Assembly (NCBI GenBank): GCA_027858965.1
Contig: JAQIBS010000146.1
Location: 3,234-67,233 of the forward strand
Length of the DNA: 64,000 bases
Direction: 5' to 3'
From: Kiritimatiellia bacterium
Lineage (GTDB): Bacteria > Verrucomicrobiota > Kiritimatiellia > RFP12 > UBA1067
The position numbers were made by a program, and so were the translations under genes. The notes under the pieces were generated by a model that did not search any database, was not told the origin of the DNA, and saw nothing but the letters and a program-made list of their open reading frames with translations. The stretch's first letter is position 1, and each line of letters begins with the position of its first letter. Below are positions 5,836 through 64,000 of this stretch, in pieces.

Positions 5836-5856
5836 AATGGAGAATGGAGAATGGAG
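5836..5856. repeat. Tandem heptamer AATGGAG x3, followed by AACGTT-containing and CCAAC word repeats, upstream of the SBP gene start
   Basis: The sequence reads aatggag aatggag aatggag aattgaa directly, then gaaaacgttactcgaacgttcaacatccaacttccaacattcaa. Confidence 0.8.
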
Positions 5857-5911
5857 AATTGAAAACGTTACTCGAACGTTCAACATCCAACTTCCAACAT
5901 TCAATAGCAGA

Positions 5912-37545: not shown

Positions 37546-37990
37546 AATGGCGGGTGGCAAGTGGCAAATGGCGAGTGCCGCAAATACATCCCCGCGAAGC
37601 TCGCCTCCCATAATCTCCAAGGCAGGGTGTGCAGGGTCAAGCGGACTTTGATTTTTGAGGCGCAGCCATCCCCGCGAAGCGGGGCAAAAGCTCGTCCGCG
37701 CACCCTGTACATCATGCCACCGTCCTCCCCGCGAAGCTCCCCTCCCATAATCTCCAAGGCAGGATGTGCAGGGTCAAGCGGACTTTGAAACACAGTGGCA
37801 AGTGGCGAATGGCAAGTGGCAAATGGCGAGTGCGGCTAATACATCCCCGCGAAGCTCCCCTCCCATAATCTCCAAGGCAGGATGTGCAGGGTCAAGCGGA
37901 CTTTGATTTTTGAGGCGTAGCCGTCCCCGCAAAGCGGGGCAAAAAACTCGTCCGCGCAGCCTGTATACCCTGCCGCCGCCCTCTCGTCCG
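37546..37990. repeat. Composite direct-repeat block with the pattern X-R-Y-R-X-R-Y (63-nt core R x3; degenerate heptamer arrays; CCCCGCGAAGCGGGG hairpins)
   Basis: The core tccccgcgaagctc.cctcccataatctccaaggcagg.tgtgcagggtcaagcggactttga occurs at 37588-37651, 37726-37788 and 37843-37906. RRTGGCR heptamer runs lie at 37546-37580 and 37794-37835. Hairpins lie at 37670-37684 and 37925-37939. Confidence 0.85.
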
Positions 37991-38025: not shown

Positions 38026-38883
38026 TTACAGCGAAAACGGCAACCGCCCCGGGCCATTGCGGTCAAGCTGAGGCAGGAGAGATTTCAGCTGAGCAACCAG
38101 CGATTCGCGGTCCTTAGGAAAACGTCCTTCCAGTGGCACCGGATTTGAACTGTGATTGGCACGGAAGACGGTCTTCTCCAGTTCAAGTCTCTGCAGAATG
38201 CGGATCAATTCACTGACAGCCTCGAACTCAGAGACCGTCTCGTAACCGGGATACATATTTAAACCAGACACTTCGACAAAGCGCAGGGCCGAAAGCAGAC
38301 GCGGCTGCATCTGATTGAGCAGAGCTGCCGTGGCATCGGCATGTTGAAGTGAACCTTTATGCCCCCCGATACCAAGCAGTACCATCACCGAGCACTTGAA
38401 TCCAACCGCTTGTGCACGCCGGACTGCCTCGCACATTCCCACAGCAGTCTCGCGCTTATCTACTTTAAGCAGCAACTCTTCATCGCCACTCTCCAGCCCA
38501 ACATAAAGGGTATTGAGTTTAAGCCGGCGCAGCTCAACGAGCTCATCATCCGTCTTGGCCGCGATTGAGCTGCCGTTGGCATAAACATTCACCCGTGCCA
38601 GACGAGGAAAGAGTCGATTGAGCTCCTCCAGCATAATGCGCAGTTTTTCAAACGAGAGCACCATCACATCACCATCGGCCAGAAAAATGCGGCGCGTTTG
38701 CGGATATTGGCAAGCAGCCCGGGTAAATTCAGCCAGAACGGCCTCCTGGGAACGAACCCGATATGGCACGCCCTTATACATGCCGCAGAATCGACATGTG
38801 TTGTGCGGACAACCATAGGCCACCTGAAAGATCAAGCTGTAAGCCTCGGCTGGAGGTCGAAATAAACGTTCTGTATATTGCAT
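38026..38883 (-). CDS. Radical SAM superfamily protein with atypical C-X4-C-X2-C cluster spacing
   Basis: 'VAYGCPHNTCRFCGMY' lies near the N-terminus. 'IFLADGD' and 'LYVGLESGDEELL' fit the radical SAM half-barrel. Confidence 0.65.
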   Translation of the reverse strand: MQYTERLFRPPAEAYSLIFQVAYGCPHNTCRFCGMYKGVPYRVRSQEAVLAEFTRAACQYPQTRRIFLADGDVMVLSFEKLRIMLEELNRLFPRLARVNVYANGSSIAAKTDDELVELRRLKLNTLYVGLESGDEELLLKVDKRETAVGMCEAVRRAQAVGFKCSVMVLLGIGGHKGSLQHADATAALLNQMQPRLLSALRFVEVSGLNMYPGYETVSEFEAVSELIRILQRLELEKTVFRANHSSNPVPLEGRFPKDRESLVAQLKSLLPQLDRNGPGRLPFSL

Positions 38884-45371: not shown

Positions 45372-45675
45372 CAGTGCGCAAGTGCGGAAGTGCACGAGTG
45401 GTTGCTGCGTTATTGGCTCAGAGAGCCAACTCTACATTGCTCCGCATTAACGCCGAAGACTGTAGGATTGCTTCTCAGAAGCAAAGGAAGAGTGCTGGGA
45501 TGGGAACAATAGGAGATGGGAATGATAGGAATAATGAGAAATATGATTTTTCTGTCACTCTGATCTGAATTATGCTTCGCCGGCTACTGGTTTCCCCGCT
45601 TACCAGCCCCTGACGACTGACGACTGACGACTGCTTGCCACGGCGTAGTTCCGCTTGCGGAACGAAGACGGGACG

Positions 45676-45724
45676 ACTGTAAACTGTAAACTGAAGACTG
45701 AAGACTGAAGACTGAAGACTGTAA
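45676..45724. repeat. Seven tandem heptamers (ACTGTAA x2, ACTGAAG x4, ACTGTAA) ending 2 nt before the transporter start codon
   Basis: Read directly from the sequence. TGACGAC x3 at 45611-45631 and the GTTCCGCTTGCGGAAC hairpin at 45648-45663 lie just upstream. Confidence 0.9.
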
Positions 45725-47114: not shown

Positions 47115-49391
47115 TTACAACACCAGAATCATAGTCCCCTGCGTCGGCAGCTTTGTGTATTCCAGCTTTACTGCTGTGACTGTTGCATTGGTCACAACCG
47201 ACTCCACATTGGTGATGCTGAGCGTCTGCGTAAAATCCCATGCAAAGTAGGAGACAGGAGCTTCTGATTGATCTGCCACATCCTCTGCGGGGATGACAAG
47301 TTTGACATTGTAATCGCCCTCTGCTTCAACCACTGAATTGGTATACCCGGCCGCTACGAAATCAGCCACCACCTCATCAACTGTTTTAGCCCCTTCCTGC
47401 ACCGCCATCCGCACATTGAGCTCGATCAGCCGGTTTGTGTTGATATTTGATACTTCCACATGTCCCATCGACATAGCGGCGAAAGACCCGGAAGCAACCG
47501 TACCGCCCATACTCAGCGTGCCCGTCTGATAGCCGCCAGCCAGTGTCACACGTGATGTCTGATCCGCCAGACTCTCTGTCCACATGTCGGTATCCGGTTT
47601 ACTGAGATAATTGAACTGGGTACTCTTAACGCCAGTCAGCAGAGGAAAGCTTTTCTTACGCAGCAGCACAGCCCCACCATCGAGTTCGACACGCAGGTGC
47701 CCGCAGCGGTAACCACCTGTCCCGGTAAAGTTAACCGGTGCCAGATGGGCGGGGCTCTTATCCAGTGTAAATGCCAGAAGAAACGGTTTCACCTGACCGC
47801 CAACATAGCTGAACTGCGGACAGAAAAATTGCGGTGCGGAACCTTTCAGATAGAACTCGGATGTACCGCTGTTGAATATTGCATAGTTCAGCGGCGTCAC
47901 GACAAACTTGCCGCCGCTGATCTCGAAACGCGCAACATTGTTTGAAGAGCCATAGGCGTAGCACTCCAGATTGCTGATCACACCCCCGGTCTGGACAAAC
48001 GACATGCCCCCATTGAGCGTTATGCGCTTATTACAGGTGAACTCTCCTTCTGTCATGAGGAAAGCCGGCGGATCATTCTTTGTATCCCCCGCTGACAGTG
48101 CTAGATTATCAAGGATCATACTCCCGCCGTTCACACTGACCTGTCCACCGTAAGCAATTGACAGATTGGCACTCACTGATGCGTTTGTAACCGTAAGTTT
48201 TGAATCTCTCAATTCAGCTGTACCTGCCATCCCTACAAACACATAACCAGCCTCTATAACCGTATTATCAGATGCCTCCAGACTTCCTGATACGATAAGA
48301 TTATCCACTGATAGAGACGCATTGTTACTGGCCGTAAAAGCTCCCACACCCGCCCCTGCAATCGATAGTCCACCCGATGTAATTGCAAGATCACCACCAT
48401 TCTGCACCAATGAACTCGAAGCACCTGCGAGAGCGACACCGTTGGAAACAGTGATATCGCATTCGGTCATGGTCACACAGCCGGTTGAACCGGATTGATC
48501 CCCGACATTAATAGAATTAAAACTGTTGGTATGTCCATTCATCGCAAGAGTGCCCGTCGAGCCGGTTCCATAACCGACCCGCAGGATAGATCCGAGATGC
48601 TGCCAGTTTCCGTTACCGCCATTGACCATCATGCTACCCTTGCCCCCTGTGGAAGCACCGATCACTACATTGTTGGAGTTTATCAATGTACCGCCGTTGA
48701 TGGTCAAAAAGCCCTCGGCCTGAGCCGCATAGCCAAGGTACAGAAAATCCGAACAGAGAAGTGTGCCACCATTCAATGTGTATTCCCCTCGGGAGGAGCC
48801 GAACCGCGCCAGATACAGGTCCGCGCTGCCGTCATAACTGTTCGTGCCGCCCTCCTGAACAAATTCGCCCAATAAAGACGATCCCACATAGCCTAAACTC
48901 GTTGTCCGGAAGAGCCCGTTCGAAAGGGTAAAAAACCCGCTGCCATTTAATCCGACATAAAAGTTTTTTGCCGTCACCTCGCCGCCGGTCATCACAACAA
49001 CACCCGTGGAACTTATGTAGTTCTGAGCCAAAACAAAGTCTCTTGTAGAGGTATCGATACTGCCGCCATTGATAAGAAGCGTTCCCCATCCATTCTGGTC
49101 CCCGACGAGCATCTTGGTGTCAACAACTGTGACCCCCTGCTCAATTTTTACCGTGCTCGGAAGCCCGTTTTGAGAAATCGCTACCGTACCATTGCTAAAG
49201 ACCGTACCGGACGACATCACCGCAAATCCACCATTGTCGACAAAAGCGATCTCGGCATCCGGCACAACTCCGCTACTCCAATTGGCACCAACATTCCAAT
49301 CAGCCTCGACGCCGACCGTTCCCACCCAATCATCATTTGCAAAGCCCGTCACAGCTGTAAAAAAAATCAACAGGCATACATTCCATTTCAT
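47115..49391 (-). CDS. Secreted beta-strand repeat (PATR/passenger-like) protein
   Basis: 758 aa. The signal peptide is 'MKWNVCLLIFFTAVTGFA'. It has Gly/Ser/Thr/Asn/Val-rich beta-helix-like repeats. The N-terminal 'DWNVGANWSSGVVPD' is similar to the PATR protein at 11933. Confidence 0.65.
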   Translation of the reverse strand: MKWNVCLLIFFTAVTGFANDDWVGTVGVEADWNVGANWSSGVVPDAEIAFVDNGGFAVMSSGTVFSNGTVAISQNGLPSTVKIEQGVTVVDTKMLVGDQNGWGTLLINGGSIDTSTRDFVLAQNYISSTGVVVMTGGEVTAKNFYVGLNGSGFFTLSNGLFRTTSLGYVGSSLLGEFVQEGGTNSYDGSADLYLARFGSSRGEYTLNGGTLLCSDFLYLGYAAQAEGFLTINGGTLINSNNVVIGASTGGKGSMMVNGGNGNWQHLGSILRVGYGTGSTGTLAMNGHTNSFNSINVGDQSGSTGCVTMTECDITVSNGVALAGASSSLVQNGGDLAITSGGLSIAGAGVGAFTASNNASLSVDNLIVSGSLEASDNTVIEAGYVFVGMAGTAELRDSKLTVTNASVSANLSIAYGGQVSVNGGSMILDNLALSAGDTKNDPPAFLMTEGEFTCNKRITLNGGMSFVQTGGVISNLECYAYGSSNNVARFEISGGKFVVTPLNYAIFNSGTSEFYLKGSAPQFFCPQFSYVGGQVKPFLLAFTLDKSPAHLAPVNFTGTGGYRCGHLRVELDGGAVLLRKKSFPLLTGVKSTQFNYLSKPDTDMWTESLADQTSRVTLAGGYQTGTLSMGGTVASGSFAAMSMGHVEVSNINTNRLIELNVRMAVQEGAKTVDEVVADFVAAGYTNSVVEAEGDYNVKLVIPAEDVADQSEAPVSYFAWDFTQTLSITNVESVVTNATVTAVKLEYTKLPTQGTMILVL

Positions 49392-49625
49392 ATTTTACTC
49401 CTCAATATCAAAGTTTTATTACACTTCCGTTAATGATAATTCAACTTATACTGTACAGTTTAGAACTCATTCCCCAAATTAACAATATCGTTTATGCGAA
49501 CTCTGTTATTTATTAACCGAACTAAATTTATATAACTTCTCCAAAAAATGGTTCTTCCGAGTTTTAATGAGTAGTGCGTTCGATAGCGATACCGATCCCG
49601 AGTAACGATGAATTCGCATCACCTG

Positions 49626-49676
49626 TGGAGGGGCCCAGGCTCTGGGACCGCGGACGGTGGGCCACCGTCCCTCCAG
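49626..49676. repeat. Two-hairpin GC-rich element, family 2, copy 1
   Basis: The sequence is tGGAGGGgCCCAGgctCTGGGaccgcGGACGGTGggcCACCGTCCCTCCag. The second copy is at 63182-63232. It is flanked by the inverted repeat 49580-49601 / 49765-49786. Confidence 0.8.
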
Positions 49677-49992
49677 ATTAAACAAAAACTTTTTTTAAAC
49701 ATCCATTGCGGATTCATCTCTACGCTCTCTGCGCCTCTGCGAGGTATAAATTCCTTATTCGCTATCGGAATCGGCATCGCTATCGAGTTACGACACGTCT
49801 TCTACGCCAAAGAATACAACATGGATATTCAGGATATACAGGATAGATGGATGCCTCACATATCTTTATCCTGTCCATCCTGTCTATCCATGTTAAGTTT
49901 TTATGGGGGTTACGGGCAAAGCTTACGCTGTGTTCTTCGTGGTTCATCTCCGTTTCCAGGATTACCCACACAAAACCGGAATAACAAAAAAA

Positions 49993-53027: not shown

Positions 53028-55676
53028 TCAAGGTAGCAGCACAGCTTGTGAATCCGCCTCAAGGTATATCACTTCTCCCTGGAAAAGAGAGCCCGGCGGC
53101 AGCTCATTCCCAAAAAGGCCAAACGCGTGTATCTCTTTGTCTACAGGCATTTTACACGGAACAAACCCAGGCGAAGATGAAATCACTGCAACAGCACGCT
53201 TTTTTCCTTCAAAAATATAAGCATACACCCCACTTGAAATATCCCTTCTCTCCACAAAACGGGTATCTTCAAGCATCCAGGCAAATTGAGCATGGGCCGC
53301 CCCTGCGGGATGCAGACAACCATCATCAGTGGTGAATACATTCCATTTCTTTGATTCAGTGCTAAAGTGTCCATTATGAGCGTGCATGCTGTAAAGAAAG
53401 ATACGGGATACCCCATTAGCCAGCATGGAGAGCTGATAACGGACAATCCTATCGGCGCTTTCAAGCACCTCATCCCTATTTTCAAAGGGAAGCGTATGCT
53501 TATAAAGACCATTGCCCATGCGATAGATTAATGGCGATCCCTCTGTCATCCAGATCCTCTTTGAGATACTGCCATACTTCTCGCGCACTGGGCTGATCGC
53601 ATTTGACAGCCCCTTTTCCACGGAATCTCCCGGATAACCCACCCCGCCGGTGGTATAGCAGTGATAGGCAATGCCATCACAGTGATCGAGACCACCTGCC
53701 TCCACGATACCCCGTGTCCACTCAGTTCCTCCGTAGCTTGAAGAGGAATTCTTAGAGGATGTGGTTGTGTTAACCCCGAGAACCAGTGCCTTAGGCTGTA
53801 TTTCATGAACCGTATCCCGGGCCAGTTTTGTCAGTTGCGCAAAATCTGCCGGTGCGTTCTTGCTGGTCACATATCCAGCCCTACCGCTCTTTGTGTGGTC
53901 ATAACCGATACCCCACCAGGCATGAATCCAGGGTTCATTCCAGACATCAAAAGCATCAATAATCCCCTTGTAACGCTCACAGACAACGCGCACATAATTG
54001 ACATATTCATCCAGATTCTTCGGCTGAAAAAACTTATCAAAGTATCCAAATGTCTTTAACCCGGCATCCTGATAGTAACTAGCCCAAGGTGGAGCTGTTC
54101 CAAGTTCAGCAAAGATCTTTATCCCATGTTTTCTATACCTTTTTATCTCCCGATCAAAGAATCGCCAGTTTCCCTTCTCTGGTTCCAGGTTCCACCAGCC
54201 GATATACTCCAACCCCGCATCATGCAAACGTGTCCAGTTGATGCCGATGGCCTTCGCCATCAGTATATGACGGGAGGACGAGAGGGTGTGTACTCCAAAG
54301 GGGGAGTCAGGTGCATCTTTTCCCCAGTAGCGCGGACGATGAAGCTGATGCCAGACCAGCTCTGCCCAGGGAGAGAGTGCTTTGCCATTACGCTCAACCC
54401 GCGCTTCCAGCCTGAAGCTACCGTAACGTTCCGTCAGATCTTTAAGTTTTATCCTCTTAACCGCTTTGAACTCCCCATGACTCAGCTCTTTTTCATTTGT
54501 ATCAAAGAGGCGCCACTTAACTACGGAATCTTTGTAATCCCCTGTCAACGCTGTATCAACTGCAGCAGATTCATCATCAAAAACAACCCGCGCCGCACCG
54601 GCATCATACCCAGGCGCCAGCGCAACGGCAACTTCGCACTGAGAAGGAGCTATGTAACGGCCTTGATAAACGCTCTCCGGACCAATATGCAACTTATCAA
54701 TCAACAGCTCGCCCTTGCCTGAGAGAGTAATCTGACAGAAGCTGTTTTTGATTGAACTCTTAAAAGGCAGTTCTACTCTTTGCCACTCATCTCCGGCTTT
54801 AAAGGATTTCGATTGCTGTCGCAACCCGGGGCCAAATACAGAGATTGTCCAATCACCTTTGCCACGCACTGAGAGTGAGGCTGTATGCGGCACAATCGGA
54901 TATACCAACTCTACCGGTGCACTGTATATACTGGTATCTTCAGCGGAAGAAATCCGCATTGCCGGAGCCAGATCCCCTTTGGCGGCCTCAACCGTAACAA
55001 CATCCCCATCAGAAGATGCCCGGTTAACGCTCCATCCCGTTGGCAGCCCCAATGGGAAACGGGTACTATACGCCAGATTATCAGGACCGCCCTGCGGATA
55101 TTTAACCTTCAGCTCTTGTATCAGCGCAGCCTCCGAAAACCGTTCCAGCTTAAACTTCGCTATGTCAAAGCTTCCTGTATTACGAAAGATGATCCAGAGC
55201 CCCATGGGCATATCATTTCCCGGCAGGCGAAACTCCCAATCATATGTTCCCCAGTTCTGTGAAAACTTAGTGTTTTTCTGCCAGTAAAATTTATAGGGTT
55301 TTCCTCGCTGACGCAAACCGATTGAAATATCACTTCCAGAGCCATTGCGACAGGTCAGAGAGAGACGATACAAGCGACTCCCCGACACATCCGCAAGAGG
55401 GAAAACTGCCAGCTGCGCCCAGTTATCATCAATCTTAGTGACACTGGTTCGTTGAAACCGTGTCCCTTGTTCATCGCCAAAAGAATACTCCGCCCAGACC
55501 TGCGCAAAACCGGAGTCATCAATCCAACCCTGAGGCAACTCACCCTTTACGCGTTCTTTCTGAACCACGTACTTTTTGATCTCACCCGCCTCACTGAAAT
55601 CCAGATCTAATAATGTCTCCGACCGGCATAGGCACACCAGAGATAATATGAAAATCAACACTCCAACCTTTTTCAT
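53028..55676 (-). CDS. Secreted clan GH-A (TIM-barrel) glycoside hydrolase with N-terminal beta-sandwich modules
   Basis: It has a signal peptide. 'IDAFDVWNEPW' is the acid/base NEP motif of clan GH-A. 'IWMTEGS' is a candidate nucleophile strand. Confidence 0.6.
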   Translation of the reverse strand: MKKVGVLIFILSLVCLCRSETLLDLDFSEAGEIKKYVVQKERVKGELPQGWIDDSGFAQVWAEYSFGDEQGTRFQRTSVTKIDDNWAQLAVFPLADVSGSRLYRLSLTCRNGSGSDISIGLRQRGKPYKFYWQKNTKFSQNWGTYDWEFRLPGNDMPMGLWIIFRNTGSFDIAKFKLERFSEAALIQELKVKYPQGGPDNLAYSTRFPLGLPTGWSVNRASSDGDVVTVEAAKGDLAPAMRISSAEDTSIYSAPVELVYPIVPHTASLSVRGKGDWTISVFGPGLRQQSKSFKAGDEWQRVELPFKSSIKNSFCQITLSGKGELLIDKLHIGPESVYQGRYIAPSQCEVAVALAPGYDAGAARVVFDDESAAVDTALTGDYKDSVVKWRLFDTNEKELSHGEFKAVKRIKLKDLTERYGSFRLEARVERNGKALSPWAELVWHQLHRPRYWGKDAPDSPFGVHTLSSSRHILMAKAIGINWTRLHDAGLEYIGWWNLEPEKGNWRFFDREIKRYRKHGIKIFAELGTAPPWASYYQDAGLKTFGYFDKFFQPKNLDEYVNYVRVVCERYKGIIDAFDVWNEPWIHAWWGIGYDHTKSGRAGYVTSKNAPADFAQLTKLARDTVHEIQPKALVLGVNTTTSSKNSSSSYGGTEWTRGIVEAGGLDHCDGIAYHCYTTGGVGYPGDSVEKGLSNAISPVREKYGSISKRIWMTEGSPLIYRMGNGLYKHTLPFENRDEVLESADRIVRYQLSMLANGVSRIFLYSMHAHNGHFSTESKKWNVFTTDDGCLHPAGAAHAQFAWMLEDTRFVERRDISSGVYAYIFEGKKRAVAVISSSPGFVPCKMPVDKEIHAFGLFGNELPPGSLFQGEVIYLEADSQAVLLP

Positions 55677-55780
55677 CCCCCCCCCTATTCACATATGAAA
55701 CTATGATATTTTATTGCTCTCAGAACAACCGACATCCTTACCTCTGCCACTCTGCATACCACTTAAATTTAAACTTAAAC

Positions 55781-56416
55781 TTAAACTATAACGTATGCCA
55801 GAAAGACCAGCAGAGGACCACCCTCAAAATCAAGTTTAACACTTTCAGCAACCGCCTCATTCAAGGCAGCCTGCCACCAGCGATTGATTTTAATGCCATT
55901 CAATGGGTATTTAAGACCTGTGGAAAAGAGTGCGCAATTCGAATCAAATGAGAAGATTGATATCTGCTGACCGGATTCAGCAACAAGGGCTGCACTTTCC
56001 CGCAATGGAATAAACACACCGCTGTCGCTCAGAAGCACCACATTGACCTGTCTCACAAAATCAACCAGAAGCGAAAGGTTACCGAGAGTATGATCCTCCC
56101 GTCCACCGGTGGCGCCAACAACTACAATGTCGTGCCAGCCATGTTTCAGGCAAAGTTTAAAAGCCTTGGTTAGATCATTGCGATCCTGACTAAGATCCAG
56201 CACAATTCGTTCTTTATATAACTCCCGGGCGGAATCAGAGATGCTGTCCATATCACCGGTGATCAAATCCGGCTGAAACCCCAATTCGACAAGTTTATCA
56301 ACAGCGCCATCGCAGCAGATAATGCGAGCGGCGCTTTTAACTGCCTGCAGTGGCACCGCATGCTCAGGTTTAACCCCGTTGGCAAAGATCACGGTTTTAT
56401 TACTGAAATCATTCAT
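55781..56416 (-). CDS. Thiamine diphosphokinase
   Basis: 211 aa. 'VIFANG' and 'ITGDMDS' are typical TPK blocks. An ATGA overlap joins it to the upstream thioesterase gene. Confidence 0.7.
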   Translation of the reverse strand: MNDFSNKTVIFANGVKPEHAVPLQAVKSAARIICCDGAVDKLVELGFQPDLITGDMDSISDSARELYKERIVLDLSQDRNDLTKAFKLCLKHGWHDIVVVGATGGREDHTLGNLSLLVDFVRQVNVVLLSDSGVFIPLRESAALVAESGQQISIFSFDSNCALFSTGLKYPLNGIKINRWWQAALNEAVAESVKLDFEGGPLLVFLAYVIV

Positions 56417-56912: not shown

Positions 56913-57041
56913 TTTTCTATGCAACGCAAAGCGTTGTTGACTAAAACAGCGGTGTTTATTACACAACTTGAAAATAAGTAAATAATATTGTGTAGATCAC
57001 TCACTGTAAGTTTGAATCTAACCCCGCTGATTTAGCTTTAG
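56913..57041. repeat. Intergenic structured element, family 1, copy 3
   Basis: The core is ttttctatgCAACGCAAAGCGTTGttgaCTAAAACAGCGGtgtttattacacaac, and the distal part is CCGCTGATTTAGctttag (57024-57041), which overlaps the stop of the 57038 gene. Confidence 0.75.
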
Positions 57042-57376
57042 TGATCGCACATATTCACTCCGGTTTCGAGCGAACCGTCTGCAAAGGCTTTCACTAACTC
57101 TTCAGGGGTCACGGAAGGTGCGCCTACCATGACCTTGATATTATTTTGTGTAAACAGCATCTGAGCACGACTGCCCATACCCCCGGCAATAATCAAATTT
57201 GCACCCTGTTCAGCAAGCCACTTCGGCAGAACACCGGGTTCATGCATTGGAGGAACAAGATCCTCACGACCAATAATTTCTTTTGTCTCTTCATCAAAAG
57301 ACAACAGGGCAAACACTGCACAATGTCCAAAATGCATTGCAAGCTTTCCTTCAGCCAATGGAATGGCAATTTTCAT
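57038..57376 (-). CDS. NifX/NifB-C-terminal-like (Nitro_FeMo-Co domain) small protein, copy 3
   Basis: The opening 'MKIAIPLAEGKLAMHFGHCAVFAL' is typical of this family. An AAGGAGA RBS lies 6 nt before ATG 57376. Confidence 0.75.
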   Translation of the reverse strand: MKIAIPLAEGKLAMHFGHCAVFALLSFDEETKEIIGREDLVPPMHEPGVLPKWLAEQGANLIIAGGMGSRAQMLFTQNNIKVMVGAPSVTPEELVKAFADGSLETGVNMCDH

Positions 57377-57413
57377 AATCATTCTCCTTCGTTTATTTAT
57401 TCTTCTTCTTCAA

Positions 57414-58676
57414 TCAATCGTATTTCAGGCCAATTGCCTGAATAATTTCTTTCATGCATTCAGCGGCCGGGGTCTCAGAATGCTCAGTGATAAAAGCTTT
57501 TCCGCTGTCACATGACTGAACAACCAACGGATCCATAGGAATCTTTCCTAAGAAGTTCACCTTCATATCCTTACAAATCTGCTCACCGCCTCCTGTGCTC
57601 AAAACCTCTGTTATTTCACCACACTTAGGACAGACAAAACCGCTCATATTCTCAATCACACCAATCACAGGCAGTTTCAATTCTTTGCAGAAGTTTACCG
57701 ATTTACGCACATCGGCAGTAGCCACTCTTTGCGGAGTTGTCACAATCACGGCCCCTTCAAGGTCCTCAATCAACTGACAAAGCGAAAGTTGTTCATCGCC
57801 GGTTCCCGGAGGAGTATCAATAATCAGATAATCCAGATCACCCCATTCAACATCGGTCAGAAACTGCTTGATCACGCCCATCTTTCGTGGCCCGCGCCAG
57901 ATCACAGCATCATCTTTATGTTGCAGTAAAAAACCTAACGAAATAACTTTCATGCCGTCTTTATCAACAGGAATAATTCCCGCAGGGCCACCCAGCGGAC
58001 GGGCATCCTCCAGATCCAGCATCGTCGGAATACTCGGTCCATGTATATCAACATCCAACAGGCCAACCCGCATTCCAGCAAGCTTATATGCCGTAGCAAG
58101 ATTAACTGCAACCGTACTTTTACCAACCCCGCCTTTACCCGACATAACCACAATCTTATGTTTAATGCGGCACATCCGTGCTTGTAATTTCACCCGATCT
58201 TCATAATCTTTGTCACTCTCATTAGGTCGCTGCTTTGCAGCAGAACAGCTCTTATCTGTGCAGGACGCACATGGTGATTCTGACGGATTCTTACCGCTCT
58301 CTATATTATTCTTCATATAATCCTTAATTGCTGATTTTAATGTATTTACTGCCAGAAGAGCACAATGCTGTGACTCCTCCGAAAATTCTCCAAATGCATC
58401 AAGCACCTTTTGCTGCGTTAACTCTAAAGCCTTGCTGACACTTTTTCCCTCAGCCAGCACCGTGGTCATACTGCCGCATGCCATTGATGAATGACACCCG
58501 TCAGTAACAAATGAAAGAGATTCCAAAGATCCCGCCTTCACCTGCACCCAGAACTCCATCGTATCACCACATGGCCCGGTAATCTTGCTGTGTCCATTAA
58601 ACACCTCAAGCGCACCACGGTTTCTTGGCTTGAAAGAATGCTCTACAGCAAGTTTTGAAAATCCTTTTAAATTCAT
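57414..58676 (-). CDS. Fusion of an IscU/NifU-like Fe-S scaffold domain and an Mrp/NBP35 (ApbC) Fe-S carrier ATPase
   Basis: The N-terminal domain has 'GPCGDTMEFW', 'DGCHSSMACGS' and 'SQHCALLAV' (the three IscU Cys). There is a Cys-rich linker. The C-terminal domain has the Walker A 'MSGKGGVGKST' and 'FVCPKCGE'. The start ATG 58676 lies 1 nt after the upstream stop. Confidence 0.8.
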   Translation of the reverse strand: MNLKGFSKLAVEHSFKPRNRGALEVFNGHSKITGPCGDTMEFWVQVKAGSLESLSFVTDGCHSSMACGSMTTVLAEGKSVSKALELTQQKVLDAFGEFSEESQHCALLAVNTLKSAIKDYMKNNIESGKNPSESPCASCTDKSCSAAKQRPNESDKDYEDRVKLQARMCRIKHKIVVMSGKGGVGKSTVAVNLATAYKLAGMRVGLLDVDIHGPSIPTMLDLEDARPLGGPAGIIPVDKDGMKVISLGFLLQHKDDAVIWRGPRKMGVIKQFLTDVEWGDLDYLIIDTPPGTGDEQLSLCQLIEDLEGAVIVTTPQRVATADVRKSVNFCKELKLPVIGVIENMSGFVCPKCGEITEVLSTGGGEQICKDMKVNFLGKIPMDPLVVQSCDSGKAFITEHSETPAAECMKEIIQAIGLKYD

Positions 58677-58677
58677 A

Positions 58678-59559
58678 TCATTCCATATTTCCAAGCAAGT
58701 ATTGACAAACTTCTTTAACATCCTGCGAAGAGGGGGAATCTGTTTCCACCACACTTAATCCATTAATCTGTGCGGTTGTAACTCCTTTATCATAACGGAT
58801 GCGACCTGCTGAAGGAGATCCCATACTGGCCGCCAATTTCTCTATACGTTCTGTCATCTCAACATTCAAATCCCACTTGTTGACACAGATAGAAGCAGGT
58901 ATCTTGAAATGTACTGTTAACTTAAGAACGCGCTCTAAATCATGCTCTCCGGAAACGGTCGGCTCCGTAACAACCAGCACCTGCGTTGCCCCTGTTAATG
59001 ATGCAATCACCGGACAACCAATCCCCGGAGGACCATCAACAACAACAAGGTTCATGCCGTTTTTCAAAGCCAGTTTCTTTGATTCATCACGTACAGTGGA
59101 AACCAGCTTTCCAGAGTTCTCTGATGCCACACCAAGTTTAGCATGAACCATCGGACCAAAACGTGTTTCAGAAAGCATCCACTCTCCGCACAGCCGATCC
59201 GGAAAATCAATTGCCTTAACAGGACAAAATGCAACACAGACTCCACACCCTTCGCAGGAAACCGGGTCAACTGCATACTTACGAGTACCATCAGCGCTTA
59301 TTGTAATATTAAACGCATCAAAACGACAATACTCTGCACAAATTCCACATCCATTACACTTCTCACTATTAACAATAGCTTCACGACCACTGTAGAAGTC
59401 ATGACGTTCTTTAACCTGCGGTGCCAGCAACAGATGCAGGTCCGCTGCATCCACATCACAATCTGAAATCACAAGATTATCCGCGAGGGCAGCCAAAGAC
59501 GCAGTTACGCTGGTCTTTCCTGTTCCCCCTTTACCACTGATAACGACAATCTCATTCAT
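58678..59559 (-). CDS. MinD/ParA-type P-loop ATPase with an inserted 2x[4Fe-4S] ferredoxin domain (COG1149-type), copy 2
   Basis: 'VISGKGGTGKTSV', 'CNGCGICAEYC' and 'CEGCGVCVAFCP' are present. The start ATG 59559 has a GGAGGA RBS. Confidence 0.8.
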   Translation of the reverse strand: MNEIVVISGKGGTGKTSVTASLAALADNLVISDCDVDAADLHLLLAPQVKERHDFYSGREAIVNSEKCNGCGICAEYCRFDAFNITISADGTRKYAVDPVSCEGCGVCVAFCPVKAIDFPDRLCGEWMLSETRFGPMVHAKLGVASENSGKLVSTVRDESKKLALKNGMNLVVVDGPPGIGCPVIASLTGATQVLVVTEPTVSGEHDLERVLKLTVHFKIPASICVNKWDLNVEMTERIEKLAASMGSPSAGRIRYDKGVTTAQINGLSVVETDSPSSQDVKEVCQYLLGNME

Positions 59560-59659
59560 AGTTCTTCCTCCTGGCCCGCTTCGACGGGCGCTTTCCCATT
59601 CCATTGATTAAGTGACTTTTGCTATAATTGTTACATTCATTCATTACTAAAAAGGTAAC

Positions 59660-59703
59660 CCAAGCATCCTGCTTGGCTAATTATTGAGGCAAGCAGGATG
59701 CTT
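59660..59703. repeat. Perfect 15-bp inverted repeat between the two MinD-ferredoxin genes
   Basis: caagcatcctgcttg (59660-59674) pairs with caagcaggatgcttg (59689-59703). Each arm is itself a small palindrome. Confidence 0.85.
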
Positions 59704-59731
59704 GCACTACTTTCATTTGCATTAATTTAAC

Positions 59732-60598
59732 TCACAAGGGGAGTTCAACTGAAATGCGCCCCGCTTCGACCATCTTTTTAATACGAGTGTGTAAATCAAC
59801 AAAAACCGGCTTATACTCAGGCAGAGCCTGAACAATCAGTTCACCGCGGGAATAGGCCTCAGCAATACGGCGATCATCCGGAATCTCTAGAATAACAGGG
59901 ATATTCTCCTCCGCACAATAGTCATGCACCCGGTTATCCCCTGCTCCCACACGGTTAATCACAACTCCAAAGGGAAGCGAAAGGACCCTGACCATATCCA
60001 CAGCCAGCACGAGATCATTGAGTCCAAACGGTGTTGGCTCTGTGATCAACACAACAAAATCAACATCCTGAATTGCCGCAATCACCGGACAGCTTGTTCC
60101 GGGAGGCGCATCAAGAATAACAACCTTGCCAGCGGCCTGTCGTTTTTTTACGGCATGAATCAGAGGCGGCGCCATTGCCGCCCCGACATCCAGGCAGCCC
60201 TGAAGCAGGGTAACCTCGCCTGATTCAAATGTCTTGACTGTTCCAATGCGATTGTCCACCTCTTTAATCGCACTCTGAGGACATATCCGCATGCATCCAC
60301 CACAACCGTGACACATCTCAGGAAAGATCATCGGTTTGGTTCCCAAAACAGCGATGGCATTATATTCGCAGAATTTTGCGCACTCACCGCAACTATCACA
60401 GAGAGCTTCATCCACCTCAGGCACAGGAATTGAAATAACCTCTTCCTTAACCTCATTTGCCTCCAGAAACAACCTGCTGTTAGGTTCTTCCACATCACAG
60501 TCAAGCAACTGTACCGGCATTTCCAACGCATACGCCAGATTCACAGAGAGTGTCGTTTTACCGGTTCCCCCTTTACCCGAAGCAATAGCAATTCTCAT
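59732..60598 (-). CDS. MinD/ParA-type P-loop ATPase with an inserted 2x[4Fe-4S] ferredoxin domain (COG1149-type), copy 1
   Basis: 'IASGKGGTGKTTLS', 'CDSCGECAKFC' and 'CHGCGGCMRICP' are present. The start ATG 60598 overlaps the upstream stop (ATGA). Confidence 0.8.
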   Translation of the reverse strand: MRIAIASGKGGTGKTTLSVNLAYALEMPVQLLDCDVEEPNSRLFLEANEVKEEVISIPVPEVDEALCDSCGECAKFCEYNAIAVLGTKPMIFPEMCHGCGGCMRICPQSAIKEVDNRIGTVKTFESGEVTLLQGCLDVGAAMAPPLIHAVKKRQAAGKVVILDAPPGTSCPVIAAIQDVDFVVLITEPTPFGLNDLVLAVDMVRVLSLPFGVVINRVGAGDNRVHDYCAEENIPVILEIPDDRRIAEAYSRGELIVQALPEYKPVFVDLHTRIKKMVEAGRISVELPL

Positions 60599-61188
60599 TT
60601 TTTCCACTCCTTTGACCGCATCAAAATATGCGATCCCATTTTTCTTTGAGCCTGTTCTGCAACCAGTGGACACTTAACCTGAAACAGGAAATAGATATTT
60701 GCAGAGGTCTCGCTCAGTGTCTCAAAATTCCCCTGCCCTTTAGATATAATTAAATCCGCATTTTCAAACTTATCTCTAAACAGCGGGCTACAGTCATCAA
60801 GCACCGTTCCCGGCGCATCCGACCCATTGTCAATAACCGTTACCAGTTCAGTAAGTCCGGTACTAATGGCATCAACCATTGTGACATCATTAATCACAGG
60901 CTTACCGCGCACAACCAACTCTTCCAACGGAGCAATCATATCCATTGCCATCTGATTCTGAGCCTCTTTGGCAGCCCGGTAAGGATCATCCACGCCGGTA
61001 AGCTGATAAAGACGCCTGTGAATCTGCTGTGCCAGAACCGGTGCCGGTTTACTCATATCCATTTCTGCAGACCATCCCAGCATCTCCCGAAGAATTTGCT
61101 CGTGAACAGAGGTGTCTGATGAAACCATACGGGCGGCATCCAATGTCTGCCGCATTAAACAGGGCACACAATCAAGAAATGTTCTCAT
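60595..61188 (-). CDS. DUF89/ARMT1-like protein, unusually short (central region apparently missing)
   Basis: 197 aa. 'FLDCVPCLMRQTLDAAR' is the N-terminal CxxC helix. 'PVINDVT' and 'ISKGQGNFETLSE...FLFQVKC' are the C-terminal DUF89 blocks. Confidence 0.6.
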   Translation of the reverse strand: MRTFLDCVPCLMRQTLDAARMVSSDTSVHEQILREMLGWSAEMDMSKPAPVLAQQIHRRLYQLTGVDDPYRAAKEAQNQMAMDMIAPLEELVVRGKPVINDVTMVDAISTGLTELVTVIDNGSDAPGTVLDDCSPLFRDKFENADLIISKGQGNFETLSETSANIYFLFQVKCPLVAEQAQRKMGSHILMRSKEWKK

Positions 61189-61227
61189 AAATATTTTATC
61201 TCATTTTGCCTATCAAATACATTACAA

Positions 61228-61466
61228 GGACAATTGTATTTATGGACAATTGTATTTATGGACAGGCAACCATAAAACTCGCCAAATTTAAAACTTCAGC
61301 ACTCTCGCACCCCACACTTGCGGGGCCAGCAGAGCTGGCTATTAATAAACTTTAGCACTCTCGCACTCTAGCACCCCGCACTTGCGGGGCCAGCAAAGCT
61401 GGCTATTAATAAACTTTAGCACTTTAGCACTCTCGCACTCTCACACTTTAGAACTTTAGAACTTCA
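61228..61466. repeat. Intra-operon repeat block: 16-mer x2, ~57-64-nt two-hairpin unit x2, and an 8-mer word array
   Basis: ggacaattgtatttat occurs twice (61228-61259). The unit agcactctcgcacccc.cacttgcggggccagca.agctggctattaataaacttt occurs twice (61297-61417). The array tttagcac/tctcgcac/tctcacac/tttagaac spans 61410-61466. Confidence 0.85.
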
Positions 61467-61469
61467 AGC

Positions 61470-61829
61470 CTACCAGTGCCCTTCAACATCAGCACCGTCA
61501 CTGGATTTCAACTCTCCGCTCTCAAGCGCCGCGATAACTGCTGAAATCGGATTGATCTCAGTATTATAGACTTTGATATTGGCAGCCGAAAGCGCCCGAT
61601 AAGCCTTAGGACCGCAATGGCCTGTTACAACAGCCTCAGCTCCAGTACTGCATACTGTCTGGGCGGACTGAATTCCGGCACCCTGGGCTGCATTCAAATT
61701 CTGACGATTATCAATCAACTCAAATGTTTTATCAGCGCAATCATAAACTAAAAATTTCGGAGCTCTCCCGAAACGTGTATCAACTGTCGCGCTCAGGTCA
61801 TCCCCGGCTGTACTAAATGCTATTTTCAT
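61470..61829 (-). CDS. NifX/NifB-C-terminal-like (Nitro_FeMo-Co domain) small protein, copy 2
   Basis: 'MKIAFSTAGDDLSATVDTRFGRAPKFLVYD' and 'AVVTGHCGPKA' are present. Confidence 0.75.
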   Translation of the reverse strand: MKIAFSTAGDDLSATVDTRFGRAPKFLVYDCADKTFELIDNRQNLNAAQGAGIQSAQTVCSTGAEAVVTGHCGPKAYRALSAANIKVYNTEINPISAVIAALESGELKSSDGADVEGHW

Positions 61830-61917
61830 AATTATTCCCTTTTTTTAAAATTTTAAAAAACAGATTACGATACGGGAATAAATACCCGTTATCGAATCTG
61901 CTTGTCATAGAGAGTTT

Positions 61918-62265
61918 CTACTTCGCTGAATCACTCTCCATAGAAGAGAGTCTATTCTTAACTGCATCCAGCTCCATCTTAAGGGCCTTCTCCTGATTCA
62001 CGAGGATTGTTTTTTCATCCACCTGATCATACGCAACTCCGGTTGCAAAAGAACCGCGTCTGCCGGCAAAGTTGAAACCACCACGTCCACCCCAGCGTCC
62101 ACCCCCAAAGCCACCCTGGCTCATTCCACGACCCATGCCTCTTCCGAAGCCACGGCCCATAGTAAAGTTTGTAAAACCGGGATTAGTATTCCCCGCACAA
62201 ATACCGGCACCACGGCCAGTCATTGCTCCCATTCCCATGGGACCTGTTCTATCTCCTCCAGGCAT
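61918..62265 (-). CDS. DUF5320 family protein (Gly/Arg-rich N-terminal half + C-terminal coiled coil)
   Basis: The opening 'MPGGDRTGPMGMGAMTGRGAGICAG' is characteristic of DUF5320. A GGAGG RBS is present. Confidence 0.7.
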   Translation of the reverse strand: MPGGDRTGPMGMGAMTGRGAGICAGNTNPGFTNFTMGRGFGRGMGRGMSQGGFGGGRWGGRGGFNFAGRRGSFATGVAYDQVDEKTILVNQEKALKMELDAVKNRLSSMESDSAK

Positions 62266-62282
62266 AATTAGCCTCCTTTTTT

Positions 62283-62759
62283 TTAATTGGGTACAAACGG
62301 CGGACGGCGGACCTGATTTTCATAAACACCCCTACAGCCCCTATTAATCTGTCCATGCCGTTTTCTGCCGCCTGTACCCGTTTGAAAATTTCCTGCGCAG
62401 TGCCCCGCTCTCCGGTGTCTGCCACCACAGCATCCGGGCATAACAAAATCAGCCTGCTCCAGATGACCGGTCATCCAGCCATCAATCACCCTACGCAAAT
62501 CACCAGAGATAAAGGAAACCACCTCAATACCGCCAGATACAATCTGCTCCCGTACCAGCCGCGACACCGCGCCACAAACCAGAACATCAGTTTTCAGCTC
62601 CTTTAACTTCAAAACTTTTTCCAACATCGAATTATCAGTGAGTAGCTGCTCTGATTCTCCCACAATGCTACCAGACTCTATCTCAACCACCACTATCTGG
62701 GCCGCTGTATCAAATACCGGAGCAATTCGATTATTCCAAACTGAAAATACTGCTATCAT
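62283..62759 (-). CDS. NifX-like (Nitro_FeMo-Co domain) protein with a Cys/Arg/Gly-rich C-terminal tail, copy 1
   Basis: 'IAPVFDTAAQIVVVEIE' and 'DVLVCGAVSR' form the domain core. The tail is 'MPGCCGGRHRRAGHCAG...'. Confidence 0.6.
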   Translation of the reverse strand: MIAVFSVWNNRIAPVFDTAAQIVVVEIESGSIVGESEQLLTDNSMLEKVLKLKELKTDVLVCGAVSRLVREQIVSGGIEVVSFISGDLRRVIDGWMTGHLEQADFVMPGCCGGRHRRAGHCAGNFQTGTGGRKRHGQINRGCRGVYENQVRRPPFVPN

Positions 62760-62981
62760 AGTTCTGCCCTTAGCAAAAATTTCTGTAACTTCTCAATAAT
62801 CGGTCAGAGAACTAAGACACCCTAAAGGGTGAACAACAAACGGGGATTGGTAATGCACATGTTTGCTGTACAGGCTTTAGCCTGTCTCAAAGAGGGTTAT
62901 TGAGAAGTTACAAATTTCTTAACCGGAAAATTGAATGAACTTCATTCAGTAGCTTTCGTTGCTTTCTCTGCAATGGTTAAC

Positions 62982-62996
62982 GCAACTGACATGCCA
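62982..62996 (-). promoter_or_regulatory. Sigma-54 (-24/-12) promoter: TGGCAT-N5-TTGC
   Basis: The reverse complement of 62982-62996 is TGGCATGTCAGTTGC, with exact GG-N10-GC spacing. It lies 264 nt downstream of the sigma-54 activator gene and ~220 nt upstream of the first operon gene. Confidence 0.65.
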
Positions 62997-63181
62997 AAGC
63001 AAGGCTACGAAATATTTAAATATTTAACCTGTTATGCCACAGACTCTTACAATAAAAGCACAGGAATAATAAAAAAAGACAGAGTAGCAACTACGCCACT
63101 CTTGGAGATGCACGGAGTAGCTCATGCTACCCTGCAAGCAATTGTTAACAACGTTTAATGTTCTACATTCAACGTCTAACG

Positions 63182-63232
63182 TGGAGGGTCCCAGGCTCTG
63201 GGACCGCGGACGGAGAGCCTCCGTCCCTCCAG
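63182..63232. repeat. Two-hairpin GC-rich element, family 2, copy 2
   Basis: The sequence is tGGAGGGtCCCAGgctCTGGGaccgcGGACGGAGagcCTCCGTCCCTCCag. It is flanked by ttctaca heptamers (63162; 63244-63264 x3). Confidence 0.8.
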
Positions 63233-63259
63233 ACCTACCAAAATTCTACATTCTACATT

Positions 63260-64000
63260 CTACATTCTATTACTGCGGCCATCCTGTACAGGAAGTGGTA
63301 TTCCAAGCTTTTTTATCTTTCTGAAAAGCGTTGTTTTATGAATACCTAAATCTTTGGCTGCCGCCAGCCTGTTATAATTATTGCGTTCAAGTGCTGATTG
63401 AATTGACTGGGCATCAAGAATCTGATGAGCGGAATGTATATCAATATTTCTGTTTTTCTGAGAACAGCAAAGGCGCAGTTCATCAGGAAGATGCGAAATA
63501 TCAATTGTTTTTTCATTACATAAAATAAAGGCACGCTCAATGGAATTTTCCAGTTCACGAATATTCCCCGGCCAGTCATGGGCAATCAGCAGCGAAAGAG
63601 CTTCCACCGAGATACCCTCGACATTTTTACGCATGAGCATATTGAATTTTTCAATAAACCGATCAACCAGCAATGGAATATCCTCTTTGCGTTTCTTCAA
63701 TACCGGCAGTTCCAGACGTGCCACATTAATACGGTAATACAGGTCTTCACGAAAATCACCGGCTTTGACCATTGCAGAAAGATCCCGGTTGGTTGCAGCA
63801 ATGACGCGCACATCCGCATGCTCACTCTGGACCGATCCAAGAGGCTCATAGGTGTGCTCCTGAAGAACCCGCAGCAATCGCACCTGCAGTGCTTTACTGA
63901 CCTCACCTATCTCATCAAGGAAAAGGGTGCCGCCTTTGGCCAACGCAAACCGACCGGGTTTATCCCGGACAGCCCCTGTAAAAGCTCCCGCCTTATAACC
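63260..64000 (-). CDS. Sigma-54-dependent transcriptional activator (NtrC/Fis family); partial, N-terminus lies off the window
   Basis: The frame is open to the window edge. 'GAFTGAVRDKPGRFALAKGGTLFLDEIG', 'RVIAATNRDL' and the C-terminal HTH 'AAKDLGIHKTTLFRKIKKLGI' are present. Confidence 0.9.
   Translation of the reverse strand, partial: GYKAGAFTGAVRDKPGRFALAKGGTLFLDEIGEVSKALQVRLLRVLQEHTYEPLGSVQSEHADVRVIAATNRDLSAMVKAGDFREDLYYRINVARLELPVLKKRKEDIPLLVDRFIEKFNMLMRKNVEGISVEALSLLIAHDWPGNIRELENSIERAFILCNEKTIDISHLPDELRLCCSQKNRNIDIHSAHQILDAQSIQSALERNNYNRLAAAKDLGIHKTTLFRKIKKLGIPLPVQDGRSNRM

Follow-up and report, generated by a model that had tools for sequence, protein, structure and literature searches.

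A probable orp (ORange Protein complex) locus of an uncultured Kiritimatiellia bacterium, headed by a putative OrpR-type sigma-54 activator

The ORange Protein (ORP) complex of Desulfovibrio vulgaris (DvH) is made up of Orp3 and Orp4, two MinD-like proteins with two [4Fe-4S] motifs each, together with Orp5, Orp8 and Orp9 (PMC6345978). The orange protein Orp8 holds a Mo-Cu-sulfide cluster, and MrpORP (Orp9) passes its own cluster to Orp3/Orp4 in vitro; formation of the complex has been shown for DvH/D. alaskensis (PMC6345978). The DvH genes (DVU2103-DVU2109: Orp3, Orp4, Orp5, OrpR, Orp7, Orp8 and Orp9) form two divergent operons around orpR (DVU2106), which are transcribed from sigma-54 promoters with the assistance of integration host factor (IHF) (PMC3897727). 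In the PAS domain of OrpR, the residues Cys52, Cys61 and Cys65 ligate a redox-sensitive [4Fe-4S] cluster, and the operons are shut off as the redox potential rises (PMC8359166). The only targets of OrpR in DvH are two 17-bp palindromes GGGCGYRTTTTGCGCCC, and the regulator was described as restricted to the delta-Proteobacteria (PMC8359166). Published guesses at the role of the complex are cell division/positioning and metal-sulfide cofactor handling. Here we analyzed a stretch of 64,000 nucleotides (the window) from an uncultured Kiritimatiellia bacterium (assembly GCA_027858965.1, contig JAQIBS010000146.1, positions 3,234 to 67,233), and propose that positions 57038-64000 very probably carry an orp gene cluster with its cognate OrpR-type sigma-54 activator.

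The cluster consists of nine open reading frames (ORFs), a partial regulator gene and eight co-directional genes downstream of it, and all of them, like every other feature of the cluster described below, lie on the minus strand. An earlier note, made from the letters of this DNA, had proposed a candidate uncharacterised metallocluster assembly system. The eight genes, the partial activator, the promoter and the two palindromes listed there are all present at the positions given, and the family assignments are borne out by Pfam, in the case of the first NifX-like gene by way of its orthologues. The Fe-S/metallocluster reading also stands, whereas the word 'uncharacterised' does not, as the set corresponds to the orp cluster of D. 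vulgaris. On this identification the locus is an already-studied system in another phylum, with domain rearrangements that are frequent in databases and absent from the orp literature found. Specific to the locus are the Kiritimatiellia host, the single operon, the split MrpORP and an in-frame deletion of 90 residues in a DUF89 gene. The host assignment agrees with the IlvD of the window, which is 90% identical to proteins of Kiritimatiellia metagenome-assembled genomes (MAGs).

The decisive lead towards the orp identity was given by the NCBIfam scan, which matched the model NF041136 for MrpORP. The gene 57414-58676 encodes an IscU-like scaffold fused to the Mrp/NBP35 domain of MrpORP, with a NifU_N domain at residues 10-124 (81.5 bits) and a NUBPL-type ParA domain at residues 171-415 (343.7 bits). 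Its Mrp half matches positions 2-248 of NF041136 with 372.9 bits, and the product of the last gene, 57038-57376 (Nitro_FeMo-Co, 67.5 bits), matches positions 265-364 with 125 bits. Joining the Mrp domain and this product in silico yields 499.7 bits over positions 2-364 of 365, at a model cut-off of 450. The last gene is thus the Di-Nase (NifX-like) domain of MrpORP as a gene of its own, and it carries the published motifs HFGHC and PP.HEPG..P and the terminal CDH (PMC6345978). Together, the two genes share with MrpORP (Orp9/DVU2109, Dde_3202) the deviant Walker A, the CXXC, the HFGHC, the proline-rich motif and the terminal CDH, whereas in the window the protein is split in two genes, begins with an additional IscU-like domain and includes the Cys-rich linker CxxCxxxxC. 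An alignment of 19 homologues shows no variation at the IscU ligands C36, D38, C61, H104 and C105, in the Walker A GKGGVGKS or in the CPKC motif. The IscU-like domain is a divergent one, because it stays under the NCBIfam equivalog cut-offs for both IscU and NifU. Among the best 120 listed homologues of IscU-Mrp (57-73% identity), all 120 contain both domains, although the fusion had been thought particular to this locus; the Di-Nase domain is also fused in roughly a fifth of them, one of which is named MrpORP by NCBI.

The remaining core genes agree with this identification. Two paralogous MinD/ParA-type ATPases of the Orp3/Orp4 type, hereafter MinD-ferredoxins, are encoded at 59732-60598 (CbiA, ParA and two Fer4 domains) and 58678-59559 (CbiA/ParA and two Fer4 domains). 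Four CxxCxxCxxxC motifs are readable in their translations, two per protein, and the pair fits the published description of Orp3/Orp4 (PMC6345978), a likeness by description and not by alignment to the DvH sequences. The gene 61470-61829 encodes an orange protein (ORP/Orp8) homologue (Nitro_FeMo-Co PF02579, 79.8 bits), whose closest solved structure is the ORP of D. gigas (PDB 2WFB, E = 5.7e-18, 68.6 bits, residues 2-88).

The regulator gene lies in the window with its 3' part of 245 codons (63260-64000, ORF 63260-63997), which matches the Pfam families Sigma54_activat, AAA_lid_14 and HTH_8 and contains the end of the AAA+ domain with the GAFTGA loop, the lid and a Fis-type helix-turn-helix (HTH). 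A metagenome scan with this fragment returned 80 loci. Enhancer-binding proteins (EBPs) at least 55% identical to the fragment are followed by the same orp genes (tailed NifX-like and DUF5320) in 15 of 22 cases, contigs permitting, versus 1 of 45 for more distant EBPs. All 43 full-length orp-linked activators carry the motif C-x-[DE]-x6-C-x3-C at 159-161 residues before the GAFTGA loop (160 in 41 of them), a spacing equal to that of the OrpR Fe-S triad C52/C61/C65 with D/E54 (triad from PMC8359166). In the closest syntenic locus, L004, the activator has 456 residues and a PAS-AAA+-HTH architecture, and its PAS segment CSDVFRSSLCGENC reads C-x-D-x6-C-x3-C. We infer that the activator of the window is an OrpR orthologue, because every one of the orp-linked relatives carries the triad and its close relatives precede orp genes. 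OrpR-type activators with the Fe-S cysteine triad are therefore linked to orp genes far beyond the delta-Proteobacteria.

Downstream of the regulator gene, a near-consensus -24/-12 element TGGCAT-N5-TTGC was found at 62996->62982 by pattern scan. It is the single match to TGGCAYN5TTGC in 64 kb, with 0.5 expected over both strands of the entire window. By itself the match is not significant, but its position is conserved across relatives: an element of the GGCAC-N5-TGC type lies 93-206 bp past the EBP stop codon in 34 related loci, and the exact TGGCAYN5TTGC stands directly before the first orp gene in L004, L005, L012, L021, L037 and L051, which belong to several phyla. At the level of sequence, this unique and positionally conserved match, together with the ORF map, upholds the proposal that the co-directional genes lie behind a sigma-54 promoter.

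Alignment of 33 upstream regions on the -24 element revealed two sites in tandem, (A)GTAGC-N6-GCTAC(T) nearer to the promoter (proximal) and GTAGC-N6-GCAYC farther from it (distal), and the two palindromes picked out from the window earlier fall at these family-wide activator sites. The proximal candidate upstream activating site GTGGCGTAGTTGCTAC (63084-63099), of which the first of those palindromes, GTAGCAACTAC, is a part, matches the family consensus at 9 of 10 positions. It is the sole 16-mer in 64 kb with at least a 9/10 match to GTAGC-N6-GCTAC and lies 103 bp upstream of the -24 element; the best such site is found at -101 to -104 in twelve related loci. The distal candidate GTAGC-N4-GCTAC (63117-63130) lies at about -134, where the relatives have their distal sites at -131 to -138, and agrees with the N6 distal consensus by its 5' half-site only. 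The Desulfovibrionaceae loci L043, L047 and L057 carry the published OrpR site GGGCGT.TTTT.GCCC at the same offset, and because of this equal position the full set can be linked to the system studied in Desulfovibrio. By lineage, the operator reads GGGCG..TTTT..GCCC in Desulfovibrionaceae, GTAGC-N6-GCTAC in most others (e.g. L086, L088, L090, L095, L096 and L021) and GTCGC/GTTGC-N6-GCGAC in Syntrophaceae. As judged from the aligned regions, the DNA target of OrpR-type activators has changed between lineages, whereas the position of the sites and the sigma-54 promoter stayed constant. The spacer between operator and promoter is 70% A+T, versus 52% for the window.

A simple terminator scan also picked out 63084-63099, as a hairpin of terminator type with T7 behind it. 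A mere terminator of the activator gene is disfavoured, since both sequence and offset of the palindrome are kept in loci without the T-run. The role of operator is thus preferred for the proximal palindrome by its conservation, and a dual operator/terminator role is possible.

The gene order was compared with that of related loci. In L004, whose IscU-Mrp is 71% identical to that of the window, the order is histidine kinase, PAS-AAA+-HTH activator, tailed NifX-like, DUF5320, ORP, full-length DUF89, two MinD-ferredoxins, IscU-Mrp and Di-Nase. Genes for a thioesterase, a thiamine pyrophosphokinase and a pyruvate phosphate dikinase follow the cluster in the window and L004 alike, and a histidine kinase and a sulfatase precede the activator in L004. 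In addition, the surroundings of the Mrp gene were surveyed in 80 species-representative genomes, in which many contigs are cut and counts are therefore lower bounds. Two MinD-ferredoxin genes lie near Mrp in 31 of the 80 loci. These core loci contain an ORP-like gene in at least 26, a Di-Nase gene or domain in 23, a tailed NifX-like gene and a DUF5320 gene in 14 each, IscU in 12, and an intact DUF89 and an OrpR-like activator in 11 each. The same order recurs in MAGs labelled Smithella/Syntrophaceae, Aminicenantes, Planctomycetaceae/Thermoguttaceae, Victivallales, Krumholzibacteria, Desulfohalobiaceae, Spirochaetes and Leptospirales, and the single-operon layout is also found in many relatives, including the Desulfovibrionaceae MAG of L043. 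Comparison of the sequences thus established the homology of every part, the conservation of promoter and operator, and the synteny across phyla.

Reduced loci were also observed. In L047 and L057 (Pseudodesulfovibrio/Desulfovibrionaceae MAGs), an OrpR-type activator and promoter are accompanied by one weakly NifX-like gene and Mrp, with no MinD-ferredoxin gene within about 8-10 kb on either side. Furthermore, members of a radical SAM family (L005 6665-7621, L025 7677-8630 and those of 18 further loci) lie inside or beside the orp-type clusters of at least 20 fetched loci, some of them archaeal. The gene often lies between the two MinD-ferredoxin genes, and its product shows weak similarity to MoaA and to a tungsten-cofactor maturase. 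This family is missing from the cluster of the window and from L004. The only radical SAM gene of the window (38026-38883) was considered as a relocated partner and rejected, as it is unrelated to the orp-linked family (BLASTP E = 0.007 over 72 residues) and has different NCBIfam neighbours.

Besides the core, the cluster contains three further genes. The first gene after the promoter, 62283-62759, encodes a NifX-like protein of the Di-Nase fold that ends in a cationic Cys/Arg tail. Alone it scores 23.7 bits against PF02579, under the cut-off of 26.3; nevertheless, by family-level comparison it is NifX-like, because 13 of 14 orthologues match PF02579 and the family profile finds PDB 1RDU (E = 7.8e-8). 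Such a tailed NifX-like gene is the first after the promoter in most orp loci, and its conserved motifs are W..RIAPVFD, LVCGAIS and MPGC. Most orthologues (e.g. L102 4551-5180 and L021 4231-4875) have a long Gly/Arg tail that ends in a Cys4 ribbon C-x-CPxCG...PC...CPxCG, whereas in the window and in L004 the protein ends in a short Cys/Arg tail and lacks the ribbon. The ribbon-tailed proteins may be of the type named 'small iron-sulfur protein of the ORP operon'. The second gene, 61918-62265, encodes a DUF5320 protein (PF17253, 82.9 bits) with an N-terminal MPGGDRTGP, a low-complexity middle rich in Gly, Arg and aromatic residues, and a C-terminal helix. In an orp-like locus of an uncultured archaeon, the gene L041 5199-5777 is a natural fusion of Nitro_FeMo-Co (74.5 bits) with the C-terminal two-thirds of DUF5320 (42.9 bits), a Rosetta-stone link between NifX-like and DUF5320 proteins with an IssA-like architecture.

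The third gene, 60595-61188, is a clear member of the DUF89/ARMT1 damage-control phosphatases (subfamily I) by sequence (ARMT1/DUF89, 141.8 bits). It had been called a shortened DUF89; the family assignment holds, and the shortening is more exactly a clean in-frame internal gap of 90 residues in the alignment with the L004 orthologue of 289 residues. The deletion takes out the segments GNIID and LYLADNAGE, which hold the lid Asn/Asp and the Asp nucleophile/Asn, while the C-terminal elements KGQGNFE, ND and GSD are retained. In the fission-yeast Duf8901, activity requires the lid Asp195 as well as the Asp nucleophile and the Asn next to it, and the lid Asn192 contacts the phosphate mimic (PMC9062747). 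The established mechanism is therefore excluded for the window copy, and the deleted protein is predicted to be inactive as a phosphatase. The other orp-linked DUF89 genes differ in this respect, with GNxxD, DNAGE and KGQGN[FY]E intact in 18 of 18. The deletion is real, because three independent assemblies have the deleted allele with 100% identity. Most simply, it is a decaying gene, and the presumably dead allele offers a natural experiment on the dispensability of DUF89.

Based on the systems described in Desulfovibrio, we propose the following working order for the locus. By analogy with D. vulgaris, the activator would sense redox through a [4Fe-4S] cluster in its N-terminal PAS domain. 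It would occupy the palindromic tandem sites that lie about 103 and 134 bp before the -24 element, and at low redox potential alone it would spend ATP on opening the sigma-54 promoter (62996-62982). The eight genes are presumably carried on a single transcript, whose Orp8-type product would be the NifX-fold binder of a non-covalent metal-sulfide cluster. A cluster would be built on the IscU domain, a role of this domain in the Kiritimatiellia locus that is likewise presumed, and then pass to the CXXC-bridged site in the Mrp dimer and from there to the two MinD-ferredoxin ATPases. These ATPases, the orange protein and the other NifX-fold proteins would then assemble into the ORP complex. Redox sensing, sigma-54 dependence, Fe-S transfer and complex formation would in this way carry over from Desulfovibrio to the Kiritimatiellia host.

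The window shares with the DvH cluster the ORP homologue, the two MinD-like ATPases with two [4Fe-4S] motifs each, the MrpORP-type carrier with its Di-Nase domain, an adjacent sigma-54 activator from a family whose full-length orp-linked members are PAS-AAA+-HTH proteins with the Cys triad, a sigma-54 promoter and two upstream palindromes. It differs in its host, which belongs to the Kiritimatiellia (PVC group), whereas OrpR was described as restricted to delta-Proteobacteria. Several further points weigh against the orp identification. The window holds one co-directional operon instead of two divergent ones, with an IscU-like domain added before Mrp, a detached Di-Nase gene, and the additional DUF5320 and deleted DUF89 genes. 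No gene of the window is assigned to Orp5 or Orp7 of DvH, and no cysteine desulfurase lies within the cluster. The N-terminal PAS sensor of the activator is located beyond the window, so that its identity as OrpR leans on the orthologues; exact look-ups with four proteins of the window gave either no hit or short contigs of 1.8-2.6 kb with full identity to the window. The DvH operator GGGCGYRTTTTGCGCCC is absent from the window, in which the palindrome GTAGC-N6-GCTAC takes its place, and no IHF consensus WATCARNNNNTTR (at most 1 mismatch) occurs in 62990-63090. In the published CXHFGHCE motif of MrpORP, the first Cys is replaced by Ala in the window (AMHFGHCA). Co-transcription has to be presumed across two wide spacers of 281 bp and 172 bp. 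Finally, the physiological role of the ORP complex is called 'unclear' by the orp authors themselves (PMC8359166). The regulation and biochemistry of the cluster are nevertheless known (PMC3897727, PMC8359166, PMC6345978), so the question in the earlier note of whether the literature already assigns it a function is answered for these two and not for its role in the cell.

A previously uncharacterised metallocluster assembly system, defined by sigma-54 control, the scaffold-carrier fusion and DUF89, would fit the fact that DUF5320, DUF89 and the IscU fusion are undescribed in the Desulfovibrio orp literature found; a literature search for DUF5320 gave no relevant paper. However, model score, closest solved structure, Cys triad and a gene order shared with Desulfovibrionaceae loci in which the published operator is found all place core and regulator with orp. 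The three features thought particular to the locus are widespread among relatives, sigma-54/EBP control being a hallmark of orp clusters and an intact DUF89 gene being present in at least a third of the core loci, and we consider this view very improbable and largely refuted by the MrpORP and ORP matches. We consider equally improbable a nitrogenase-type cofactor maturation set, in which NifX/NifB-like carriers and NifH-like ATPases would supply a nitrogenase-like enzyme, or another enzyme with a complex cluster, whose genes lie beyond the window. P-loop Fe-S ATPases and proteins of the NifX fold are indeed present, and the dedicated radical SAM gene found inside or beside the cluster of at least 20 related loci is reminiscent of NifB chemistry. 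On the other hand, a scan of 39 ORFs across the window gave no nifHDK, nifB or nifEN, in agreement with the earlier reading of these genes, and none was seen in the syntenic locus L004; the flanks of L004 are the histidine kinase, sulfatase, thioesterase, thiamine pyrophosphokinase and pyruvate phosphate dikinase genes described above; the sole radical SAM gene of the window is unrelated to the orp-linked family; and the source contig reaches at most 6.9 kb past the window.

Two further views concern function. The ORP complex could be primarily a MinD/ParA-type division positioning device with its Fe-S clusters as redox switches, which would be a reading of function and not of the identity of the locus. 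Morphological defects reported on OrpR inactivation, the polar localization of MrpORP and the MinD-like C-terminal amphipathic helices of Orp3/Orp4 speak for it (PMC6345978, PMC4672049, PMC8359166). We regard it as unlikely, since its own authors called the hypothesis unconfirmed, no division genes are nearby in the window, and the company of IscU, NifX-fold carriers, DUF89 and radical SAM is a cofactor-handling and not a cytoskeletal signature. The other view is an IssA-like store for delivery of iron sulfide or thiometallate, in which NifX domains would nucleate an anionic polymer, to be wrapped by cationic segments, namely DUF5320 and the tail of the first gene product. IssA of Pyrococcus furiosus, a thioferrate storage protein, combines a NifX fold with a cationic tail of Gly, Arg and aromatic residues, for which binding of thioferrate was proposed (PMC5524996). 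Similar to IssA, the window combines NifX/Di-Nase folds with cationic, glycine-rich and probably disordered segments, and DUF5320 and the tail of the first gene share the Gly/Arg/aromatic composition. The archaeal NifX-DUF5320 fusion adds to this likeness, as does MTH1175, which is assigned to the IssA clade (PMC5524996) and is the second-best solved relative of the window ORP homologue. However, the likeness is one of composition, which does not amount to homology. In addition, the characterised ORP binds a discrete Mo-Cu-sulfide cluster and not a polymer, the tail in the window is short and Cys-rich, and the cationic segment lies partly on a separate DUF5320 protein in a context of ATPases, Mrp and sigma-54, in a locus known from its genes alone. 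Such a store therefore seems decidedly improbable here.

Between the published guesses, the gene company points towards metal-sulfide cofactor handling and not cell division, because orp genes elsewhere travel with IscU, DUF89, DUF5320 and the radical SAM family; these travelling partners of the orp core are concrete candidates for what the ORP complex is for. A much bolder reading, for which we see only a slim chance, sees in the orp clusters across phyla a single assembly line, gated by redox, which would make a metal-sulfide cofactor or store other than ordinary Fe-S and be composed of OrpR, tailed NifX-like, DUF5320, ORP, DUF89, two MinD-ferredoxins, radical SAM, IscU, Mrp and Di-Nase, with DUF5320 and the cationic tails as IssA-like wrappers. 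DUF89 and radical SAM would be accessory parts, both dispensed with by the lineage of the window, where DUF89 is deleted and radical SAM absent. The preferred identification as an orp cluster makes the locus itself an ordinary representative of a studied system, which opens no new field.

The junctions between the genes vary in width. The stop codon of DUF89 overlaps the start of the first MinD-ferredoxin gene in an ATGA at 60595-60598, and a gap of 1 nt at 58677 separates the second MinD-ferredoxin from the IscU-Mrp gene; both follow from the ORF coordinates, so the tight junctions noticed earlier are correct. Wider junctions are those of 281 bp between the second NifX-like (ORP) gene and DUF89, and of 172 bp between the two MinD-ferredoxin genes. 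The former (61189-61469) is a spacer with repeats, in which Tandem Repeats Finder found a 64-bp unit in 2.3 copies at 61298-61448 (score 251), with two copies of GCCAGCTTTGCTGGCCCCGCAAGTGCGGGG. Each 64-bp unit contains two GC-rich hairpins, GCCAGCTTTGCTGGC and CCCCGCAAGTGCGGGG; on the flanks stand 8-nt tandem repeats (ACTTTAGC, 6.5 copies), and a 16-nt unit in 2.3 copies lies directly before the DUF89 start. The equivalent spacer in L004 has 100 bp. An apparent 128-bp deletion of L002 relative to the window in this repeat region proved to be a run of N in the scaffold and not a polymorphism.

The 5' leader between the promoter and the first gene (62760-62972) is structured and unusually long. 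It has about 210 nt and is closed by a perfect 16-bp inverted repeat (62784-62799/62897-62912), extendable to about 23 bp, with several small hairpins inside; its RNA fold has -61 kcal/mol (z = -4.3). A riboswitch or other known RNA was rejected, since the Rfam search gave no match at E <= 5 except chance eukaryotic snoRNA/miRNA hits. In L004 the promoter stands about 30 bp before the start codon and the long leader is missing, and no further copy of it was found in any fetched locus. The long leader is probably a lineage-specific insertion; it could be an insertion resembling a miniature inverted-repeat transposable element or a lineage-specific regulatory leader.

Short repeats were also observed elsewhere in the window. 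A GC-rich double hairpin after the activator stop (63181-63233) has a second copy 13.5 kb away at 49625-49677, with 92% identity over 53 bp, and looks like a dispersed element of the repetitive extragenic palindromic type. Perfect or near-perfect tandem repeats of 6-8 nt in 3-7 copies lie at or near gene ends at 63243-63269, 45675-45721, 45610-45633, 37794-37832, 5836-5859 and 55761-55787, for example ATTCTAC in 3.9 copies, which overlaps the activator stop codon, and GACTGAA in 6.7 copies. They may be a genome-wide habit of this Kiritimatiellia lineage.

The neighbourhood of the cluster is abundant in sulfatase, rhamnosidase, GH16 and GH141 genes. The large ORFs 53028-55676 (882 residues) and 47115-49391 (758 residues) gave no Pfam match. 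Two very large proteins are encoded at 17730-20777 and 38953-44364. The former has 1015 residues with an NPCBM domain and a hydrazine-synthase-alpha middle domain, and the latter has 1803 residues with CotH kinase-like, lamin-tail and chitobiase-C domains and PATR repeats.

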